From an uncultured Eubacteriales bacterium (GTDB lineage: Bacteria > Acidobacteriota > Aminicenantia > Aminicenantales > Aminicenantaceae): a stretch of 64,000 bases of DNA. The notes beneath the pieces were generated by a model. That model saw only the letters and a program-made list of their open reading frames with translations, did no database searches and was not told where the DNA came from. Location: the NCBI GenBank assembly GCA_964611275.1, contig CAZSZS010000040.1, positions 2,992-66,991 of the forward strand, given 5' to 3'. Made by a program: the position numbers and the translations under genes. Shown in pieces: positions 1,998-7,968 of this stretch. Within the stretch, counting starts at the first letter, position 1. The number at the start of each line of letters is the position of its first letter.

Positions 1998-3221
1998 TTG
2001 AGAAGACGGTGTATTGTCCATATTGATATTGATGCTTTCTTTGCCTCTGTGGAAAAGCTTCTGGACCCCTCTCTTGAGGGAAAACCTGTTATCGTGGGCG
2101 GACTTCCTCATGAAAGAGGCGTTGCGTCCACAGCTTCCTATGAGGCCAGAAAGTACGGGGTGCATTCGGGCATGCCGCTGCAAAAGGCTTATCAGCTCTG
2201 CCCTAACGGCATATTTATAAGGGGCGACCACCGGGTCTATACGGCTTTTTCCAGGAATTTCCGTCGGATCCTTTCGCGGTACACTCCGGATATGGAGATG
2301 GCTTCCCTGGATGAGGCTTATCTGGACCTCAGCCGCTGTGGCGCGCTTTATTCCTCATTCTCAAGAACGGTCGCTCAGATAAAGCAGACCGTGGAGAAAA
2401 AATTAAGACTCTCTGTGTCCGTGGGCGTAGGGCCTAACAAGACTATAGCCAAGCTGGCAACCAACAGAGCCAAACCCGGGGGGCTGGTGGAAGTAAAACC
2501 GGGCTGCGAGGAGTCCTTTCTTAAGGAGCTTCCCATAGAGGCTCTTCCGGGAATCGGCTTCAAAGCCCGGGCTGAACTTGATATGCTCAACATACGGAAG
2601 ATCAAAGACCTCTGGGGGCTGCCCAGGGAGGCTCTGAGGACACTTTTCGGATTAAGGGGAGAGGAGATCCGTCTTCAATCCCATGGTATTGACGACCGGC
2701 CTCTGGAGTCATCCGGAGAGCAGAAATCGATTTCGCGTGAGACCACATTTCTCAAGGATATATGGGAGAGGCGGCTCCTTCTGGCTCACCTGGCCTATCT
2801 TTGTGACCGTTTGAGTTTGGCTCTGAGAAAAGACCGTTGCTTCAGCCATATCATAGAGGTCAAGGTCAGGTGGTCTGATTTCAAGACCGAAGTCCGCCGC
2901 AGGCTTCTGGTGAATCCGGTCCAGGAAATGGATGATATCTACCGGATAGCCCGGGAGCTGTTTTTAGAGCTTTTTAAGGGAGCTCGTTTGTCACTCCGTC
3001 TGGTGGGAGTCAAGTCTTCTGACCTGGTCAGAAGCCGGACCCTTTCGCTTTTTGAGCCTCACTCTCTCCATAAAGAACGTCTGGGCACGGCTGTTTTCGA
3101 AGTGAGAGAGAAATACGGGTTTGGCTCCCTTCTTACCGCCAGGGAGAAGATGCTGGACGATGTGTACGGCTTCACAAAGAAGCGCGGTTTTATACTGAAA
3201 ACAGCTTCTCTCACCAAATAG
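1998..3221 (+). CDS. dinB: Y-family DNA polymerase IV (DinB-type), catalytic residues intact
   Basis: N-terminus IVHIDIDAFFASVE and SLDEAYLD (catalytic Asp/Glu), LPGIG helix-hairpin-helix. TTG start follows AAGGAG (1984-1989). Confidence 0.9.
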   Translation: MRRRCIVHIDIDAFFASVEKLLDPSLEGKPVIVGGLPHERGVASTASYEARKYGVHSGMPLQKAYQLCPNGIFIRGDHRVYTAFSRNFRRILSRYTPDMEMASLDEAYLDLSRCGALYSSFSRTVAQIKQTVEKKLRLSVSVGVGPNKTIAKLATNRAKPGGLVEVKPGCEESFLKELPIEALPGIGFKARAELDMLNIRKIKDLWGLPREALRTLFGLRGEEIRLQSHGIDDRPLESSGEQKSISRETTFLKDIWERRLLLAHLAYLCDRLSLALRKDRCFSHIIEVKVRWSDFKTEVRRRLLVNPVQEMDDIYRIARELFLELFKGARLSLRLVGVKSSDLVRSRTLSLFEPHSLHKERLGTAVFEVREKYGFGSLLTAREKMLDDVYGFTKKRGFILKTASLTK

Positions 3222-3283
3222 CCTCTGGCTTTTGTCATTTTTAACGGAACAGGTCATGGTTTTTGGAGGTCAATGAGAAAGTG

Positions 3284-6088
3284 ATGTTTGTTCCCCTGCG
3301 GGTTCACTCCGTGTACAGCAAAGGCAAAGGGAGTGTGCTTCCGGATGAGCTGGCTTTCTGGGCAAAAGACAGGGGAATGGCTGCGGCATGTCTTTCAGAT
3401 AGGGAGGTTTTTTACGCATGGGGACGCTGGAAGGAAGCAGCCCGCAGAAACAAAATAGTCCCTTTGTACGGCTGTGAATTGACCGTCCAAAAGAGAAAGC
3501 TTCTGTTTGTGGTTAAAAACCGGACCGGATACTGGAACCTGATGGAGATCTTTAACAGCAGGGAGATAAAACAGGTCCGGGGTCTTGTGGTGGTCTATAT
3601 CCCCCAGGCGGGGGAGAGTGAGTTTCCGGAGGGGCTCAAAGCCGCGGCTGGTCCGGATTTCTACCTGGGAGCGGATTTTCAAAACTTTGAAAAGGTAGTG
3701 CACTGGGCCGGGGTGTACTCTCTGCCCGGGGTTTGGGCCAATCCCCTGAAGTTTATTGGAAATCCGAAAAGGCTTATCCTTACTCACTCTATCCATGAAA
3801 AACGGCCTTTCCCTCCGGAATGGACAAAATGGAAGTCCCGGATGAAGTTTTTCGGCCCGCTCCAGCAGGAATTGGCACTGAAAAAGTTTGGCAGCAAAGT
3901 CAGTGAGTTTTTTAGAAGGACTCTTGAAGTGGCTGAAAAGTGCTCTTTCACTCTGGAAAACATCGTTCCCGGACTGCCTGAAGGCCTTTTCCCAGAGTCG
4001 TTCAGGGATATGGTCATGAAAACAATGCAGCAGAAGAAATCCCTGAGCTGGAGAGAGAGGCAGCGGGCGCGGATAGAGCTGCAGGCGGTTGAAAAAACAG
4101 GATTCGGTCCTTATTTCCAGGTGGTCCATGATGTGGTGCGTTTTGCACGGCGGGAGGGGATCCTTTATAATCTCAAAGGCTCCGGGGCCTCTTCTTTTCT
4201 GGCCTATCTTCTGGGGATCTCCCATATCAATCCGGTTGATTTTGACCTTTATTTTGCCCGGTTTTTAAACCAGGGCCGGAAGGACCCTCCGGATTTTGAC
4301 CTGGACTTTGATTCCAGATACAGAGACCGGGTGCTGGAGTATGTTCTGGAGAATTACGGAAAGGGAAAAACTGGGGCGGCTTTTGTGTGCAGCCTCAAAA
4401 ACTACCGGGCCCGTTCCGCTGTTTATGAAACGGCGCGGGCATTTGGCCTGCCTCCGGCAGAGTCGAGGGCGCTCAGCAAGAAGGTCCCCTATTTTGTGGA
4501 GCCTGATTATCTGAAAAAGCATCACCCTCCGCCCGGCTGTAAGGAGATCTGGAGGGCTGCCTCGGAATTGACTTCGGTCTACGGTGAAAGTTCTCTTCAT
4601 GTGGGAGGTGTTCTTTTGACACCCCCGCCGGTCAGCCGGTATCTTCCTCTGGAAAAATCAGCAAAAGGCCTCATCATGTGTCATTTTGACCGGGATGCGG
4701 TGGAAGATTTGAAGCTCATTAAGCTGGACCTTCTTTCCGTACGAGGGCTGGCCGCGATTTCCGGGACGAAAAATGAGCTGAACATAAAGGATATTCCATG
4801 GAATGACAAAAAGAGCTTTCTCCTTCTCTCCCGCGCACAGACCATAGGATGCTTTCAGGTCGAGAGTCCGGCCATGATGAATCTGCTTTCCCGAATGAAG
4901 CCGGATGATATCTACGGGCTGACCCAGGCTTTAGCGTTGATCCGGCCGGGGCCGACGCAAAGCGGGACAAAAAAGGCCGTGCTCCAGGCGCGTGAGGGCA
5001 GGTCATCTGCCAATGACCCGTTTTTCTCCGGAATCATTCCTGAGACCGGAGGGCTTCTCCTTTATGAAGAGCAGGTCATGCAGGTGGCTGAGAGAGTCGC
5101 CGGCATGAGTTCAGAAGAGGGAGACACACTGCGCAGGGAACTGAAAAAGAAATCGCCCTGTCCCGCCTTGAAAGATAAGTTTTTTCAAGGAGCGCAAAAG
5201 CGAGGATACACACGCACCGAGATAACAAAGATATGGAATCATATGGAGCAATTTTCTTCCTACTCTTTTAATAAAGCTCATAGTGCCTCCTATGCGTGCA
5301 TGGCTTATCAGTCCGTTTATTTAAAAGCCCATCATCCTCTGCCGTATCTCAAAGCTGTTTTGAATGCCGGCGGAGGTTATTACAGCCTCCCGGTCTATAT
5401 AGAGGAAGCCAAAAGGCTTGGGATCAAGGTTCTGCCCCCGGATGTCGCACACAGTGATTATGACTTCGAAGAGGAGGGCTCCTGCATAAGGGTGGGGCTT
5501 TTGTCCATAAAGCGCCTTAAGACCAGCACGGCCAAAAAGATAATAGAAGAACGCCGAAAAGGCCCTTACCGCTCTCTGGATGATTTTCTTGCCAGGGTTT
5601 CTGTGACCAGGGCGGAGCTTTTCTCTCTGGTCAAGTCAGGGGCTTTGGACCCGTTGGAGCCCCGAAGGGCAGAGCAGGTCCTGAATGGTTATAAAGGCAG
5701 CGGAGGAACAGAAAAGATTCCCGAGATGGAAAAGGCACGGAAAGAGAAGATGCTGATTGACTCTCTGGGGTTTGATCCCACAGGAGATGCTCTCAATCTT
5801 TTTAACGCGAAAAGGCCGGCTCTGCGGATCAAAGACCTGGAATACAGGGCCGGACAGATCGTGGAGCTTATGGTCCGGGTTATGGACGCGCGCAGGAAAA
5901 AGGTCAGGCAGGGGGAAACGTATTTCTTTCTTTTTTCAGACGAAACAGGCATGATCGAAGGAGCAGGCACAAAGAAATGTGTTCCTTTTGGTTCGCCGCC
6001 GGCCTGTTATGTGCGGGGCAGGATCCGCAGGAGCGAGAACGGGCGCGTCAAGATTTTCAACTGTGCTTTTCTCTCTTTGCACGAGTGA
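3284..6088 (+). CDS. dnaE2: Error-prone DNA polymerase III alpha-like subunit (DnaE2-type, short form)
   Basis: Pol III alpha core motifs: PDFDLDF, IRPGP, FNKAHSASYA. C-terminal OB-fold-like region. About 935 aa is too short for replicative DnaE. The PHP N-terminus is degenerate (PLRVHSVYS). Start is uncertain (ATG 3284, GTG 3281 or TTG 3263). Confidence 0.8.
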   Translation: MFVPLRVHSVYSKGKGSVLPDELAFWAKDRGMAAACLSDREVFYAWGRWKEAARRNKIVPLYGCELTVQKRKLLFVVKNRTGYWNLMEIFNSREIKQVRGLVVVYIPQAGESEFPEGLKAAAGPDFYLGADFQNFEKVVHWAGVYSLPGVWANPLKFIGNPKRLILTHSIHEKRPFPPEWTKWKSRMKFFGPLQQELALKKFGSKVSEFFRRTLEVAEKCSFTLENIVPGLPEGLFPESFRDMVMKTMQQKKSLSWRERQRARIELQAVEKTGFGPYFQVVHDVVRFARREGILYNLKGSGASSFLAYLLGISHINPVDFDLYFARFLNQGRKDPPDFDLDFDSRYRDRVLEYVLENYGKGKTGAAFVCSLKNYRARSAVYETARAFGLPPAESRALSKKVPYFVEPDYLKKHHPPPGCKEIWRAASELTSVYGESSLHVGGVLLTPPPVSRYLPLEKSAKGLIMCHFDRDAVEDLKLIKLDLLSVRGLAAISGTKNELNIKDIPWNDKKSFLLLSRAQTIGCFQVESPAMMNLLSRMKPDDIYGLTQALALIRPGPTQSGTKKAVLQAREGRSSANDPFFSGIIPETGGLLLYEEQVMQVAERVAGMSSEEGDTLRRELKKKSPCPALKDKFFQGAQKRGYTRTEITKIWNHMEQFSSYSFNKAHSASYACMAYQSVYLKAHHPLPYLKAVLNAGGGYYSLPVYIEEAKRLGIKVLPPDVAHSDYDFEEEGSCIRVGLLSIKRLKTSTAKKIIEERRKGPYRSLDDFLARVSVTRAELFSLVKSGALDPLEPRRAEQVLNGYKGSGGTEKIPEMEKARKEKMLIDSLGFDPTGDALNLFNAKRPALRIKDLEYRAGQIVELMVRVMDARRKKVRQGETYFFLFSDETGMIEGAGTKKCVPFGSPPACYVRGRIRRSENGRVKIFNCAFLSLHE

Positions 6089-6156
6089 TCTGGATCATTC
6101 CGGTCCTTTATTTTTTGCCTGTACCTTGTGTGGTTTTATTGGGATTCACTCCCGCT

Positions 6157-7803
6157 CTATTTTTCGGAGAACACAATGGCTACTGTTTTCCAGACCTTGA
6201 CTCTCACTCCGTTCTTGACAGCTGGTTTGTATTTCCACTTCTTTATGGTTCTTTCTGTATTTTCGTTAAGACCGTATGAATTCTCGATCCCCTGGACTAT
6301 TCTGGTCTCAATCACATCCCCTGTTTCAGAAACCAAAATGACCAGCACCACTTTACCGCTCACTTTGTATTTTAATGCAGCAGGAGTGTATTCCGGCTCG
6401 ACTCTTTTGACGAGCTCCGGCGGGCTGTCCACTTCATTCAAAGCAATGATATCCCCTGTTTCGATTTTTTTCTCAGGTGCAGGTTCGGGTGTTTCCGCAG
6501 GTTCTTGATCCTCGGTCTTTTGTTCCTCTTTGTTGGGTCTGGATTCCGGTAGGACATGATCTATAAGTTCTTCGATTTTGGGCTGAGGAATCTGTTTGAA
6601 ATCCGGAGGAGGCAGCGGGGTGATGCTCTCCTCCTGGCTTTCCCGGATGGTGTCTGCGGTTTTTGCCGGAGCTTCCACCACATCTTGATTTTGTTCTTCA
6701 GATGGCAAGGATTCCGGGGGAGAGGCAGGCCGCTCTGAAGCGATTTGGGTTTTTCTCTCAGCCTCTTCTCCTGGATCTTGTGGCCCGGCTGGATACTCTT
6801 CCGAGATGGTTATAGGTGTATCGACAGAGGCAGCATCTTCTATCTCCGGGTCGATTTGTTCTGCTGCAGCGGACTTATAAAATTGTTGAGAGGCTTCCTG
6901 TTTTTTATGGGAATTTTTAGGAAGAGCTACTAACAGAATAAGAGTCAATCCCAGAATGACAGAGCCAGATGCAAACAGTATCCACCTGGGTATCTTTTTT
7001 TTATTTTCTTCAGCAGAATATTCATTAAAAAGGGAAGCTCTTCTGTATTTTTTTTCAGGATCTTTGTGTTTCTTTTCTTCTTCTTTCCGGCTTTCCTGAA
7101 TTGTTTTCCCTTCTTTTTTTTCTTCCTTTATTTCTTCCTCTTGAAGAGGCGGTTTAACCGGAGCTTTCTGTTTGTTTGCGGGGTGGGCGAATTCAGCCAG
7201 TTTGCTTTTGAGGATCTCATCTATCTCTCTGCTTTTATCACTTGTGAGGTTTGTTGGCTGTGCTTTATCTCTCTTTTTAGCTAAATATTCCTCATACAGA
7301 CTATCAATCTCTTTCTCTCCGTTTAGTTTATTTTGTCTTTCCTGAGGTGAGGAACTCGCGGCTTTTTTCTCGGTTTCTTTCTTTTCCAGAAAAGCCTCTG
7401 AAGCTCTTTTATCTCTGGGTGACATTTCTGTGTCTATATTTAATAATTCAGATACCTTTGATATCATCTCCTTTTCTTTGTACGGTTTGGTAATGAAAGC
7501 GGAATTATTGAAATATTTAAGAACATAGCTCTGACAGGCTGCTTCAGAATAAAAATTAGTCATCATGAGAAGATTTATCTGTATGGTAAATGATTCGGAG
7601 ATTTCTTCAAGAAGGTCAAATCCATGGAGCTTTGACAGGAAGGGTTCCATGATAATAAGGTCAGGCTTTTCCTCATAGAATTGGGATTTGCCTTCCAGGC
7701 CGTCTTTGGCTGCTATCACCTGGTATCCCTGCTCTTGCAGAAGATTCTTGAGAGAGGATAAGGATGTCCTGTTGTAATCAATGATGAGTATCTTTTTTTG
7801 CAT
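6157..7803 (-). CDS. Atypical receiver domain - TM - Pro/Glu-rich spacer - TonB C-terminal domain fusion protein
   Basis: N-terminal CheY-like fold (KKILIIDYN...DLIIMEPFL...LLMMTN...ITKPY). Lys/Glu low-complexity stretch, then TM helix IPRWILFASGSVILGLTLILLVALP. C-terminal TonB_C-like YTPAALKYKVSGKVVLVILVSETGDVIETRIVQG...KYKPAVKNG. Start set at ATG 7803 (MQKKILIID); the ORF is open up to 7866. Confidence 0.75.
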   Translation of the reverse strand: MQKKILIIDYNRTSLSSLKNLLQEQGYQVIAAKDGLEGKSQFYEEKPDLIIMEPFLSKLHGFDLLEEISESFTIQINLLMMTNFYSEAACQSYVLKYFNNSAFITKPYKEKEMISKVSELLNIDTEMSPRDKRASEAFLEKKETEKKAASSSPQERQNKLNGEKEIDSLYEEYLAKKRDKAQPTNLTSDKSREIDEILKSKLAEFAHPANKQKAPVKPPLQEEEIKEEKKEGKTIQESRKEEEKKHKDPEKKYRRASLFNEYSAEENKKKIPRWILFASGSVILGLTLILLVALPKNSHKKQEASQQFYKSAAAEQIDPEIEDAASVDTPITISEEYPAGPQDPGEEAERKTQIASERPASPPESLPSEEQNQDVVEAPAKTADTIRESQEESITPLPPPDFKQIPQPKIEELIDHVLPESRPNKEEQKTEDQEPAETPEPAPEKKIETGDIIALNEVDSPPELVKRVEPEYTPAALKYKVSGKVVLVILVSETGDVIETRIVQGIENSYGLNENTERTIKKWKYKPAVKNGVRVKVWKTVAIVFSEK

Positions 7804-7968
7804 CCCGCTGCCAAACATCTTTTGAATGAACATATATAAATTACGTCTTTGAAAGAAACCGGTCAATCACCTTTAGGGGTGATTTAAGAGGTGAGATTGT
7901 TAATCTGCAGCAACCTTGACTCGTTCATCACCCGGGTTGGCCTGCAGTGGATTAAACTTTCTAATGTC

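Follow-up and report, generated by a model that had tools for sequence, protein, structure and literature searches.

The open reading frame at positions 6157 to 7803 (minus strand) of the window, a stretch of 64,000 nucleotides of contig CAZSZS010000040.1 from an uncultured Aminicenantales bacterium (assembly GCA_964611275.1), encodes a protein of 548 amino acids (P0001), referred to here as REC-TonB. The product is a bitopic inner-membrane protein, with a receiver-like domain that lacks the phospho-acceptor aspartate at its cytoplasmic end and a TonB C-terminal domain (TonB_C) at its periplasmic end. The receiver-like domain has a residue pattern that is conserved in a family of at least 130 proteins, the membrane helix lacks the motif that couples TonB to its motor, and the gene is preceded by a DNA element that also precedes genes for type IV pili, PilZ proteins, and cell wall enzymes. 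The reading that we prefer, with a probability of roughly 45%, is that REC-TonB may act as a phosphorylation-independent, non-energized, envelope-spanning adaptor within a program of pilus, cyclic di-GMP (c-di-GMP), and cell wall functions.

The frame is uninterrupted from the ATG at 7803 and extends 5' of it as far as a TTG at 7866. This alternative start falls within the conserved TTGACC of the upstream element, and the extensions upstream of the ATG vary between orthologs, all of which share the N-terminus MQKKILIIDY. Full-length orthologs of 43 to 94% identity are known. Every possible start leaves the receiver in the same gene as TonB_C, and a Pfam search found PF00072 (Response_reg) at the N-terminus and PF03544 (TonB_C) at the C-terminus, both above their cutoffs. 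The claim of an earlier note on this DNA that the two domains belong to one gene is thereby upheld, and the objection it had foreseen, a true start downstream of the receiver, falls away. The match to PF00072 covers residues 5 to 117 (52.1 bits; E = 8.7e−14; Pfam cutoff, 30.2), while no response-regulator equivalog came near its own cutoff in the NCBIfam search. In an AlphaFold2 model computed from a 16-sequence alignment, residues 4 to 120 form five beta-alpha units (pLDDT, 66 to 85), and Foldseek matched the N-terminal end to the receivers of PhoP and YycF.

HMMER alignments to three solved receivers (PhoP, 1mvo; VicR, 8fk2; MicA, 1nxo) place Glu53 in the acceptor column, with "liimE" on "liilD," and its codon was read directly from the DNA as GAA (7647 to 7645). 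In the same alignments D9-Y10 occupies the columns of the DD pair, and the Mg2+-binding acidic pair is therefore incomplete. T82 (MMTN) and K106-P107 (ITKP) are kept, and F103 is the aromatic residue at the switch position. The earlier note had described exactly this combination, a Glu acceptor and DY for DD with Thr and Lys retained. The fold, the Thr/Ser, and the Lys of a phosphorylatable receiver are thus present, and its acceptor Asp and DD pair are absent; a receiver score without an acceptor Asp is what defines an aspartate-less receiver (ALR) in a review of bacterial pseudo-receivers (PMC12632262). With Glu in the place of Asp and Tyr in that of the second metal-binding acid, such an aspartate-less pseudo-receiver cannot undergo normal phosphotransfer. 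Its Glu and the kept Thr, aromatic, and Lys residues fit an "on-like" or at least a phosphorylation-independent module. According to the same review, Glu is the commonest acceptor replacement among bacterial ALRs, unusual output domains are enriched among them, and the idea of a locked-ON state failed for some pseudo-receivers. Of the phosphomimetic function proposed in the earlier note, the phosphorylation-independent module and its "on-like" character fit the residues under selection, and a constitutively ON state is conceivable.

To place the protein in a family, we combined a word-indexed search, which gave 15 proteins with both domains, and an exhaustive one, run against 1.84 billion cluster representatives, which gave 73 matches at an E value of ≤1e−30. 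The conservation set consists of the 130 two-domain proteins among the 178 other proteins from both searches. The receiver is N-terminal in 128 of these 130, the acceptor is Glu in 122, and the second metal ligand (DD2) is Phe or Tyr in 124. After the acceptor, Lys at position 58 and His at position 60 are each found in 113 proteins, Gly at position 61 in 129, and Phe at position 62 in 126. Further on, position 82 is Thr or Ser (128/130), position 85 is Tyr (122/130), the switch position is aromatic (129/130), and Lys at position 106 (126/130) is followed by Pro at position 107 in every protein. The resulting family signature is D-[FY]...E-x3-P-K-x-H-G-F...T-x2-Y...[FY]-x2-K-P. Because the Glu and the signature are conserved across 130 proteins, the receiver is not a decayed one; the acceptor Glu is under selection, and the domain constitutes a conserved subfamily with its own signature. 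A decaying or non-functional fusion, with a degenerate receiver stranded on a TonB paralog, would agree with the accessory distribution of the gene within its genus (see below), but the frame is intact, the residues including Glu are strongly conserved across 130 divergent proteins, and conservation of the upstream element extends across families. The conservation data essentially refute this reading, to which we give next to no credence.

When prokaryotic species, each represented by one genome, were scanned for the peptide pattern E[PA][FM][LI][PS]KxHGF, 289 relatives emerged; nearly all of the best 80 are from Candidatus Aminicenantes (Aminicenantales, Saccharicenans), and a few are labeled Acidobacteria. 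The exact sequence is present in salt marsh and sediment metagenomes, all of them DNA runs. Literature searches returned no paper on a receiver-TonB_C fusion, and TonB is not mentioned in the review of bacterial pseudo-receivers cited above. The family is large (at least 130 divergent sequence clusters), conserved, unstudied, and found mostly in Aminicenantes.

The signature extends to two single-domain siblings in the same genome (G000), which both have P-K-x-H-G-F and T-x-x-Y. One of them (150 amino acids; G000:C208:20929-21381, minus strand) is of the Glu type, with DY and LEAMLPKLHGF; it sits upstream of accD/folC, and nearly all relatives have it. The other (140 amino acids; G000:C117:48933-49355, plus strand) has kept DD and the acceptor Asp (ISDMLMPKIHGF) and shows the same signature.

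Two groups of known proteins resemble the N-terminal part. The ALR pseudo-receivers with Glu (plant PRRs, fungal Rim15p, and bacterial ALRs) share the fold and the change from Asp to Glu. The REC-TonB family differs from them in its output, a transmembrane helix and TonB_C, and it has also lost the second metal-binding acid (F/Y) and carries P-K-x-H-G-F and T-x-x-Y. Closer are the proteins of Acidobacteriota composed of a pseudo-receiver, a Ser/Thr kinase, a transmembrane helix, and TonB_C (e.g., P0023), which have the same N-terminal subfamily, the linker motif DLDKLLENTLSGLE, and the same membrane and C-terminal parts. They differ by the Hanks-type kinase inserted between receiver and transmembrane helix, and in P0023 the acceptor is Ser instead of Glu; they are likewise unstudied.

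The residues following Glu53 could also be explained by a ligand: the K58-x-H60-G-F loop may bind a small molecule, e.g., c-di-GMP, which would switch a domain that is then not locked. The invariant basic and aromatic residues right after the acceptor are specific to the family, the gene is probably coregulated with those of PilZ c-di-GMP receptors, and the ShkA pseudo-receiver is described as binding c-di-GMP (PMC7010744). Nevertheless, P-K-x-H-G-F is also present in the DD/Asp sibling on C117, so the loop is not specific to the Glu form, and neither Pfam nor NCBIfam revealed a known nucleotide-binding motif. This explanation is purely inferential, and we consider it improbable.

The receiver is followed by a linker of about 150 residues (125 to 272) that is rich in Lys (19.6%) and Glu (18.2%) and for which AlphaFold2 predicts helices at residues 129 to 142, 154 to 180, and 188 to 206. 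Two motifs, EIDSLYEEYL and IDEILKSKLAEFA, are conserved in the linker at around 154 to 180 and 188 to 206, and they are kept even in distant and kinase-bearing relatives. After the transmembrane helix (about residues 273 to 295; AlphaFold2 helix, 273 to 292) comes a spacer containing 17.8% Glu and 15.1% Pro (residues 293 to 444), predicted to be disordered (AlphaFold2 residues 294 to 437; pLDDT, <50), with a median length of 162 amino acids in the REC+TonB_C family. TonB_C, at residues 469 to 545, is recognized by PF03544 (50.3 bits; E = 3.4e−13; Pfam cutoff, 24.6) and by the TonB C-terminal model TIGR01352 (35.8 bits; NCBIfam cutoff, 27.1), and it is modeled with pLDDT values of 90 to 97. It keeps the YxPxxA motif, its best structural counterpart by Foldseek is the C-terminal domain of Pseudomonas aeruginosa TonB bound to FoxA (6i97_D; TM-score, 0.88; root mean square deviation, 1.7 Å), and its sequence matches Vibrio anguillarum TonB2 (2k9k; E = 6e−7). 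AlphaFold2, composition, Pfam, and Foldseek thus agree with the earlier note on the single transmembrane helix, the Pro/Glu-rich spacer, and TonB_C; its linker is indeed Lys/Glu-rich, and is shorter than the 200 residues it had given.

TonB and TolA couple to the ExbB and TolQ motors via a Ser-x3-His motif in the membrane anchor. Position 20 of Escherichia coli TonB, as Swayne and Postle reportedly found in 2011, supports activity only as His or Asn. The transmembrane helix of REC-TonB has neither His nor Asn and no SxxxH. A hydropathy scan found exactly one transmembrane helix between the two domains in all 130 relatives; its sequence is poorly conserved, SxxxH is present in none of the 130, and a His is present in only 1. 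As a positive control, the protein at the TolA position of the Tol-Pal cluster of the same genome carries ISASAHL, with the SxxxH motif.

The contig of the window carries neither exbBD nor a TonB-dependent receptor gene, in agreement with the earlier note, which had seen none adjacent, and such genes never adjoin REC-TonB at the ortholog loci inspected. Searching for them elsewhere in the genome revealed four TonB-dependent receptor barrels (a minimum), all on other contigs, and a single gene of the MotA/ExbB family, which lies in the Tol-Pal cluster, also on another contig. Each of 25 relatives has two or three MotA/ExbB-family genes, i.e., at least one besides TolQ, and this assembly is 89.8% complete, so a separate ExbB of this genome probably falls in an assembly gap.

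The Tol-Pal cluster (L019 2786-7645; G000:C172:44785-49644) is complete and encodes TolQ, TolR, a TolA-like protein, TolB, Pal, and CpoB, and its protein at the TolA position (280 amino acids) scores as TonB_C. A third TonB_C protein (L020 5270-7558; G000:C36) has 434 amino acids, a signal anchor, a poly-Pro tract, and two TonB_C domains in tandem; it adjoins genes for an extracytoplasmic function sigma factor and a zinc-finger anti-sigma factor.

The earlier note had taken REC-TonB for a TonB-type energy transducer with regulated or partner-dependent coupling. As a genuine TonB paralog, it would be energized by ExbB-ExbD, open receptors, and be gated or localized by the pseudo-receiver. TonB_C is canonical, down to its YxPxxA motif and its similarity to TonB in a receptor complex, the Pro/Glu-rich spacer is typical of TonB, receptors are present in the genome, and all 25 relatives have a second motor gene of the MotA/ExbB family. 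REC-TonB indeed shares TonB_C, the Pro-rich spacer, and the single transmembrane helix with E. coli TonB, P. aeruginosa TonB1, and V. anguillarum TonB2. It differs from them in the length of its cytoplasmic part, about 270 residues as against about 10. Moreover, of the features of a TonB energy transducer it has TonB_C, and it lacks both the SxxxH anchor (0/130 relatives) and the association with exbBD or receptor genes; its transmembrane sequence is unconserved, and its regulon, shared with pilus, PilZ, and cell wall genes, contains no uptake genes at the sites inspected. On this evidence the regulated-energy-transducer reading is not supported, and we regard it as rather improbable.

The putative regulon is defined by a DNA element upstream of the gene, of the pattern TCAYC-N7-TCAYC-N6-GGTGA-TTGAC. 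The sequence from 7894 to 7861 is TCACCTCttaaaTCACCCCtaaaGGTGATTGACC, and that 5' of the small coiled-coil gene of contig C13 (see below) is TCACCTCAAAAGGTGATTGCC. The element is kept before REC-TonB orthologs of 28 to 79% identity, of very different sequence and G+C content. This genome has five copies of the core, TCAYC-N6-GGTGATTG, all of which are intergenic and directed toward a gene. These five sites precede REC-TonB, the coiled-coil gene, a propeller histidine kinase of 1,091 amino acids (Reg_prop/Y_Y_Y/HisKA_2), an operon of the order PilZ-PilZ-LuxR/CsgD-like-PilZ that includes a NarL/CsgD-like helix-turn-helix protein, and a lipoprotein of the RlpA-SPOR type. A variant of the element, TCACCTTtggaaTCCCCCTgcatGGTGATTGAC, precedes pilB-pilT-pilC.

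The core pattern was found in two to nine copies in each of 26 related genomes, whereas the reversed pattern, used as a control, was found in none. We fetched 41 sites from seven genomes and identified the downstream genes by BLAST and Pfam. They encode REC-TonB, the small protein, PilZ operons, propeller or PAS HisKA_2 kinases, and RlpA, and also an SLT transglycosylase, a prepilin, an M4 peptidase, and some unknowns. The element lies 80 to 240 nucleotides upstream of 19 of the 20 pilB orthologs with an identifiable start. From 86 distinct sites we derived the consensus aaAaaTCAcC-N4-aAaTCAtC-N6-GGTGATTGAC. Among the approximately 60 sites inspected, none was followed by a gene for a TonB-dependent transporter, for ExbBD, or for iron/metal or B12 uptake. 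The element would correspond to a promoter with an abutting regulator site, its TTGAC being −35-like, and a candidate for the regulator is the NarL/CsgD-like protein encoded in the PilZ operon. Since the same element precedes genes of these functions, REC-TonB most likely acts in a type IV pilus, c-di-GMP, and cell wall remodeling program rather than in nutrient uptake.

A looser palindrome, TCACC-N6-GGTGA without the TTG extension, was also searched. It gave seven sites, one of them intragenic, with about three expected by chance (rough estimate), and was discarded as too weak. Three further palindromes were seen in this genome. At G000:C29:4884-4960, the perfect palindrome TCACCTTTAGGGGTGA is followed about 30 nucleotides on by GTCAATCC-N8-GGGATTGAC, both upstream of a gene for a TPR-repeat protein (by eye). 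At G000:C109:17049-17064, TCACCCTTATGGGTGA lies between a receiver-like gene of 373 amino acids and a gene for a highly acidic coiled-coil protein of 428 amino acids.

A second gene recurs with REC-TonB. The distant orthologs (about 26 to 45% identity) are found at other loci, with an M48 peptidase gene among the neighbors, and are followed directly by a gene for a coiled-coil protein of 81 to 87 amino acids that starts with M-x-L-S-K-E-Q-E-E-L-Y (directly downstream in L013, L014, L016, and L017). This gene adjoins REC-TonB in six relatives (G013, G016, G018, G019, G020, and G024), all from other genera and five from other families. Pfam and NCBIfam searches of the small protein returned coiled-coil noise or nothing. 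The small-protein family is present in 20 of the 26 related genomes. Full-length REC-TonB frames are present in 12 of the 26, and the small protein accompanies all 12 of them, compared with 8 of the 14 genomes without REC-TonB (Fisher test; P = 0.017).

In the window, no small coiled-coil gene lies beside REC-TonB, where the convergent dnaE2 ends 69 nucleotides away and leaves no room. Contig C13 encodes a homolog of 93 amino acids (tblastn; E = 5e−21), whose gene is preceded by an RND efflux operon and followed by a gene for an EamA transporter. The rule of an adjacent partner thus fails in this genus. G013 has two paralogs (C15:21852-22112 and C3:101037-101279), as does G010; in G013 one of them adjoins REC-TonB and the other is linked to EamA. 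The EamA-linked copy has the exact core element; that of the adjacent copy deviates from the core by one base and stands before the upstream REC-TonB. Since G013 holds both copies, the genus of the window has kept only the EamA-linked paralog. We had also considered the C13 homolog as a simply relocated partner, an idea weakened by the presence of both copies in G013 and by the occurrence of the EamA-linked copy without REC-TonB.

In the adaptor reading that we prefer, TonB_C would dock by beta-strand pairing on an outer-membrane or peptidoglycan-associated partner. Glu53 and the retained Thr, aromatic, and Lys residues would hold the pseudo-receiver in one conformation, and the pseudo-receiver together with the linker motifs would recruit cytoplasmic partners. 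One of these, in most lineages, is probably the coiled-coil protein of 81 to 93 amino acids encoded directly downstream. Presumably transcribed from the element that it shares with the pilus, PilZ, kinase, RlpA/SLT, and coiled-coil genes, REC-TonB would connect the outer envelope with a platform in the cytoplasm, in the manner of GltJ. The architecture, the residue pattern, its conservation in the family, the lack of the TonB membrane motif, and the common DNA element are direct results; we infer the docking and cytoplasmic partners, the locked conformation, and the physiological role from sequence.

This reading has precedents. In GltJ and GltG of the surface-motility (Agl-Glt gliding) system of Myxococcus xanthus, TonB_C is combined with cytoplasmic interaction domains (PMC11135422, PMC11761067). 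In GltJ, a ZnR-linker-GYF part, one transmembrane helix, a disordered stretch, and TonB_C join the cytoplasmic platform to the outer gliding machinery (PMC11135422), and GltG is the FHA version of this layout (PMC11761067). The order of parts is the same as in REC-TonB: an interaction domain, a linker with a short binding motif, a transmembrane helix, a disordered segment, and a TonB_C-like domain. The earlier note therefore overstated the novelty of a cytoplasmic signaling fold on a TonB-type protein. The likeness is architectural, and any sequence relationship seems confined to TonB_C. The cytoplasmic domains of GltJ and GltG are ZnR-GYF and FHA and not a receiver fold, and Pfam found neither in REC-TonB. 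They also work with the dedicated AglRQS motor and a large glt cluster, neither of which was seen here, although Glt genes were not searched individually. A second precedent is TonB3 of P. aeruginosa, a TonB-family protein that serves the assembly and localization of type IV pili and not uptake; PocAB-TonB3 is required for these pili (PMC5285504). TonB3 lacks a receiver domain and is encoded with the ExbB/ExbD homologs PocA and PocB, whereas REC-TonB is encoded without a motor, and the link of the latter to pili is the upstream element it has in common with pilB-pilT-pilC.

Several observations weigh against the adaptor. TonB_C and the Pro-rich spacer are fully TonB-like and the relatives have a second ExbB-type motor, so energization via an atypical contact is conceivable. 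The AlphaFold2 confidence for the receiver is moderate. The −10 is weak and went unrecognized in a scan for the sigma-70 consensus, which makes the promoter a putative one. A common DNA element likely indicates coregulation and not a common function. The coiled-coil gene is unlinked to REC-TonB in all five REC-TonB genomes of this genus, which has only the EamA-linked paralog, and this paralog also occurs without REC-TonB. Finally, REC-TonB is accessory within the genus, so its role must be dispensable.

Signals may also travel in the opposite direction. REC-TonB would then be an outside-in transducer, whose TonB_C senses a state-dependent TonB box or strand of an outer-membrane protein and signals through the membrane helix to the pseudo-receiver, which in turn frees or binds an effector such as the coiled-coil protein, giving phosphorylation-free cell-surface signaling. 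The layout is that of FecR-type transducers, with a cytoplasmic effector domain, one transmembrane helix, and a periplasmic docking domain, and at least four TonB-dependent receptors are present in the genome. The kinase placed between pseudo-receiver and membrane in the sister architecture of P0023 suggests the cytoplasmic side as the output, and the kept Thr, aromatic, and Lys switch residues could still permit a conformational change. However, a single poorly conserved transmembrane helix and a disordered spacer of 150 residues are poor conduits for a signal, genes for receptors, sigma factors, or anti-sigma factors neither are linked to REC-TonB nor bear the element, and nothing marks a regulated output. 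We therefore hold this alternative to be unlikely.

The adaptor could be part of a broader module, a proposal that we put forward with considerable doubt. A motor-less TonB_C tether at the outer membrane or the pilus secretin, the pseudo-receiver and its coiled-coil partner, the pilus motor, and PilZ proteins would then be under one dedicated regulator. The permanently "on-shaped" receiver and the coiled-coil protein would couple contact of the tether to the type IV pilus motor and the PilZ c-di-GMP receptors, and the regulator, binding TCAYC-N7-TCAYC-N6-GGTGA, would drive all components. If this holds, it would be a third usage of TonB_C, besides ExbBD-TonB and Agl-GltJ/G, and would define a surface-behavior regulon for an uncultured class.

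TonB_C is usually taken as a marker of energy-dependent uptake, and here it is found on a protein with a non-phosphorylatable receiver and without the coupling motif. The current annotation of these proteins, "TonB family protein," probably misstates their role. The family signature, with the acceptor Glu, an aromatic residue where the metal ligand would be, and P-K-x-H-G-F, together with the true-Asp sibling in the same genome, offers a natural system for testing phosphomimicry. The upstream element, in turn, provides a testable regulon (pilus motor, PilZ, lytic transglycosylases, and propeller kinase) in a lineage that has no cultured model. The coordinates of the features are given in Table 1.

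Table 1. Features of the REC-TonB gene in the window and copies of its upstream element elsewhere in the same genome
Feature	Position	Strand	Basis or details
Whole open reading frame (pseudo-receiver, linker, transmembrane helix, spacer, TonB_C)	6157..7803	−	Open frame; both Pfam domains above cutoff
Receiver-fold domain, aspartate-less (residues 5-117)	7453..7791	−	PF00072, AlphaFold2, Foldseek
Glu53 codon GAA, phospho-acceptor position	7645..7647	−	Read from DNA; alignment to solved receivers
Cytoplasmic K/E-rich linker (residues 125-272)	6988..7431	−	Composition, AlphaFold2 helices
Single transmembrane helix (about residues 273-295), RWILFASGSVILGLTLILLVALP	6919..6987	−	AlphaFold2, hydropathy scan
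Periplasmic Glu/Pro-rich spacer, predicted disordered (residues 296-444)	6472..6918	−	Composition, pLDDT <50
TonB_C domain (residues 469-545)	6169..6399	−	PF03544, TIGR01352, AlphaFold2, Foldseek
Upstream element	7861..7894	−	TCACC 7894-7890, TCACC 7882-7878, GGTGA 7871-7867, −35-like TTGACC 7866-7861
Element copies in the same genome (G000), outside the window	C13:11046-11066; C46:20163-20181(−); C91:1711-1729; C118:11633-11651; C120:27100-27130		Genes listed for the five sites: coiled-coil, 93 amino acids; kinase, 1,091 amino acids; PilZ operon; RlpA-SPOR; pilB-pilT-pilC

The gene is flanked upstream by a DUF72 gene and downstream by a convergent dnaE2/dinB pair, and this order is kept in the close orthologs (56 to 79% identity). 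The genes for the dnaE2-type and Y-family polymerases, at 1998 to 6088 of the window, are conserved beside REC-TonB in close relatives (L010 to L012). The slot between DUF72 and dnaE2 (window 6089 to 7968) is variable within the genus. Five genomes have REC-TonB in it, the slot of G007 is similarly large without a match to REC-TonB, and G006 has a gene of 766 amino acids that resembles, by eye, an S9-type peptidase (L126 1677-3977; G006:C146). In G001 the slot is empty, with a gap of 40 nucleotides (L129; G001:C50).

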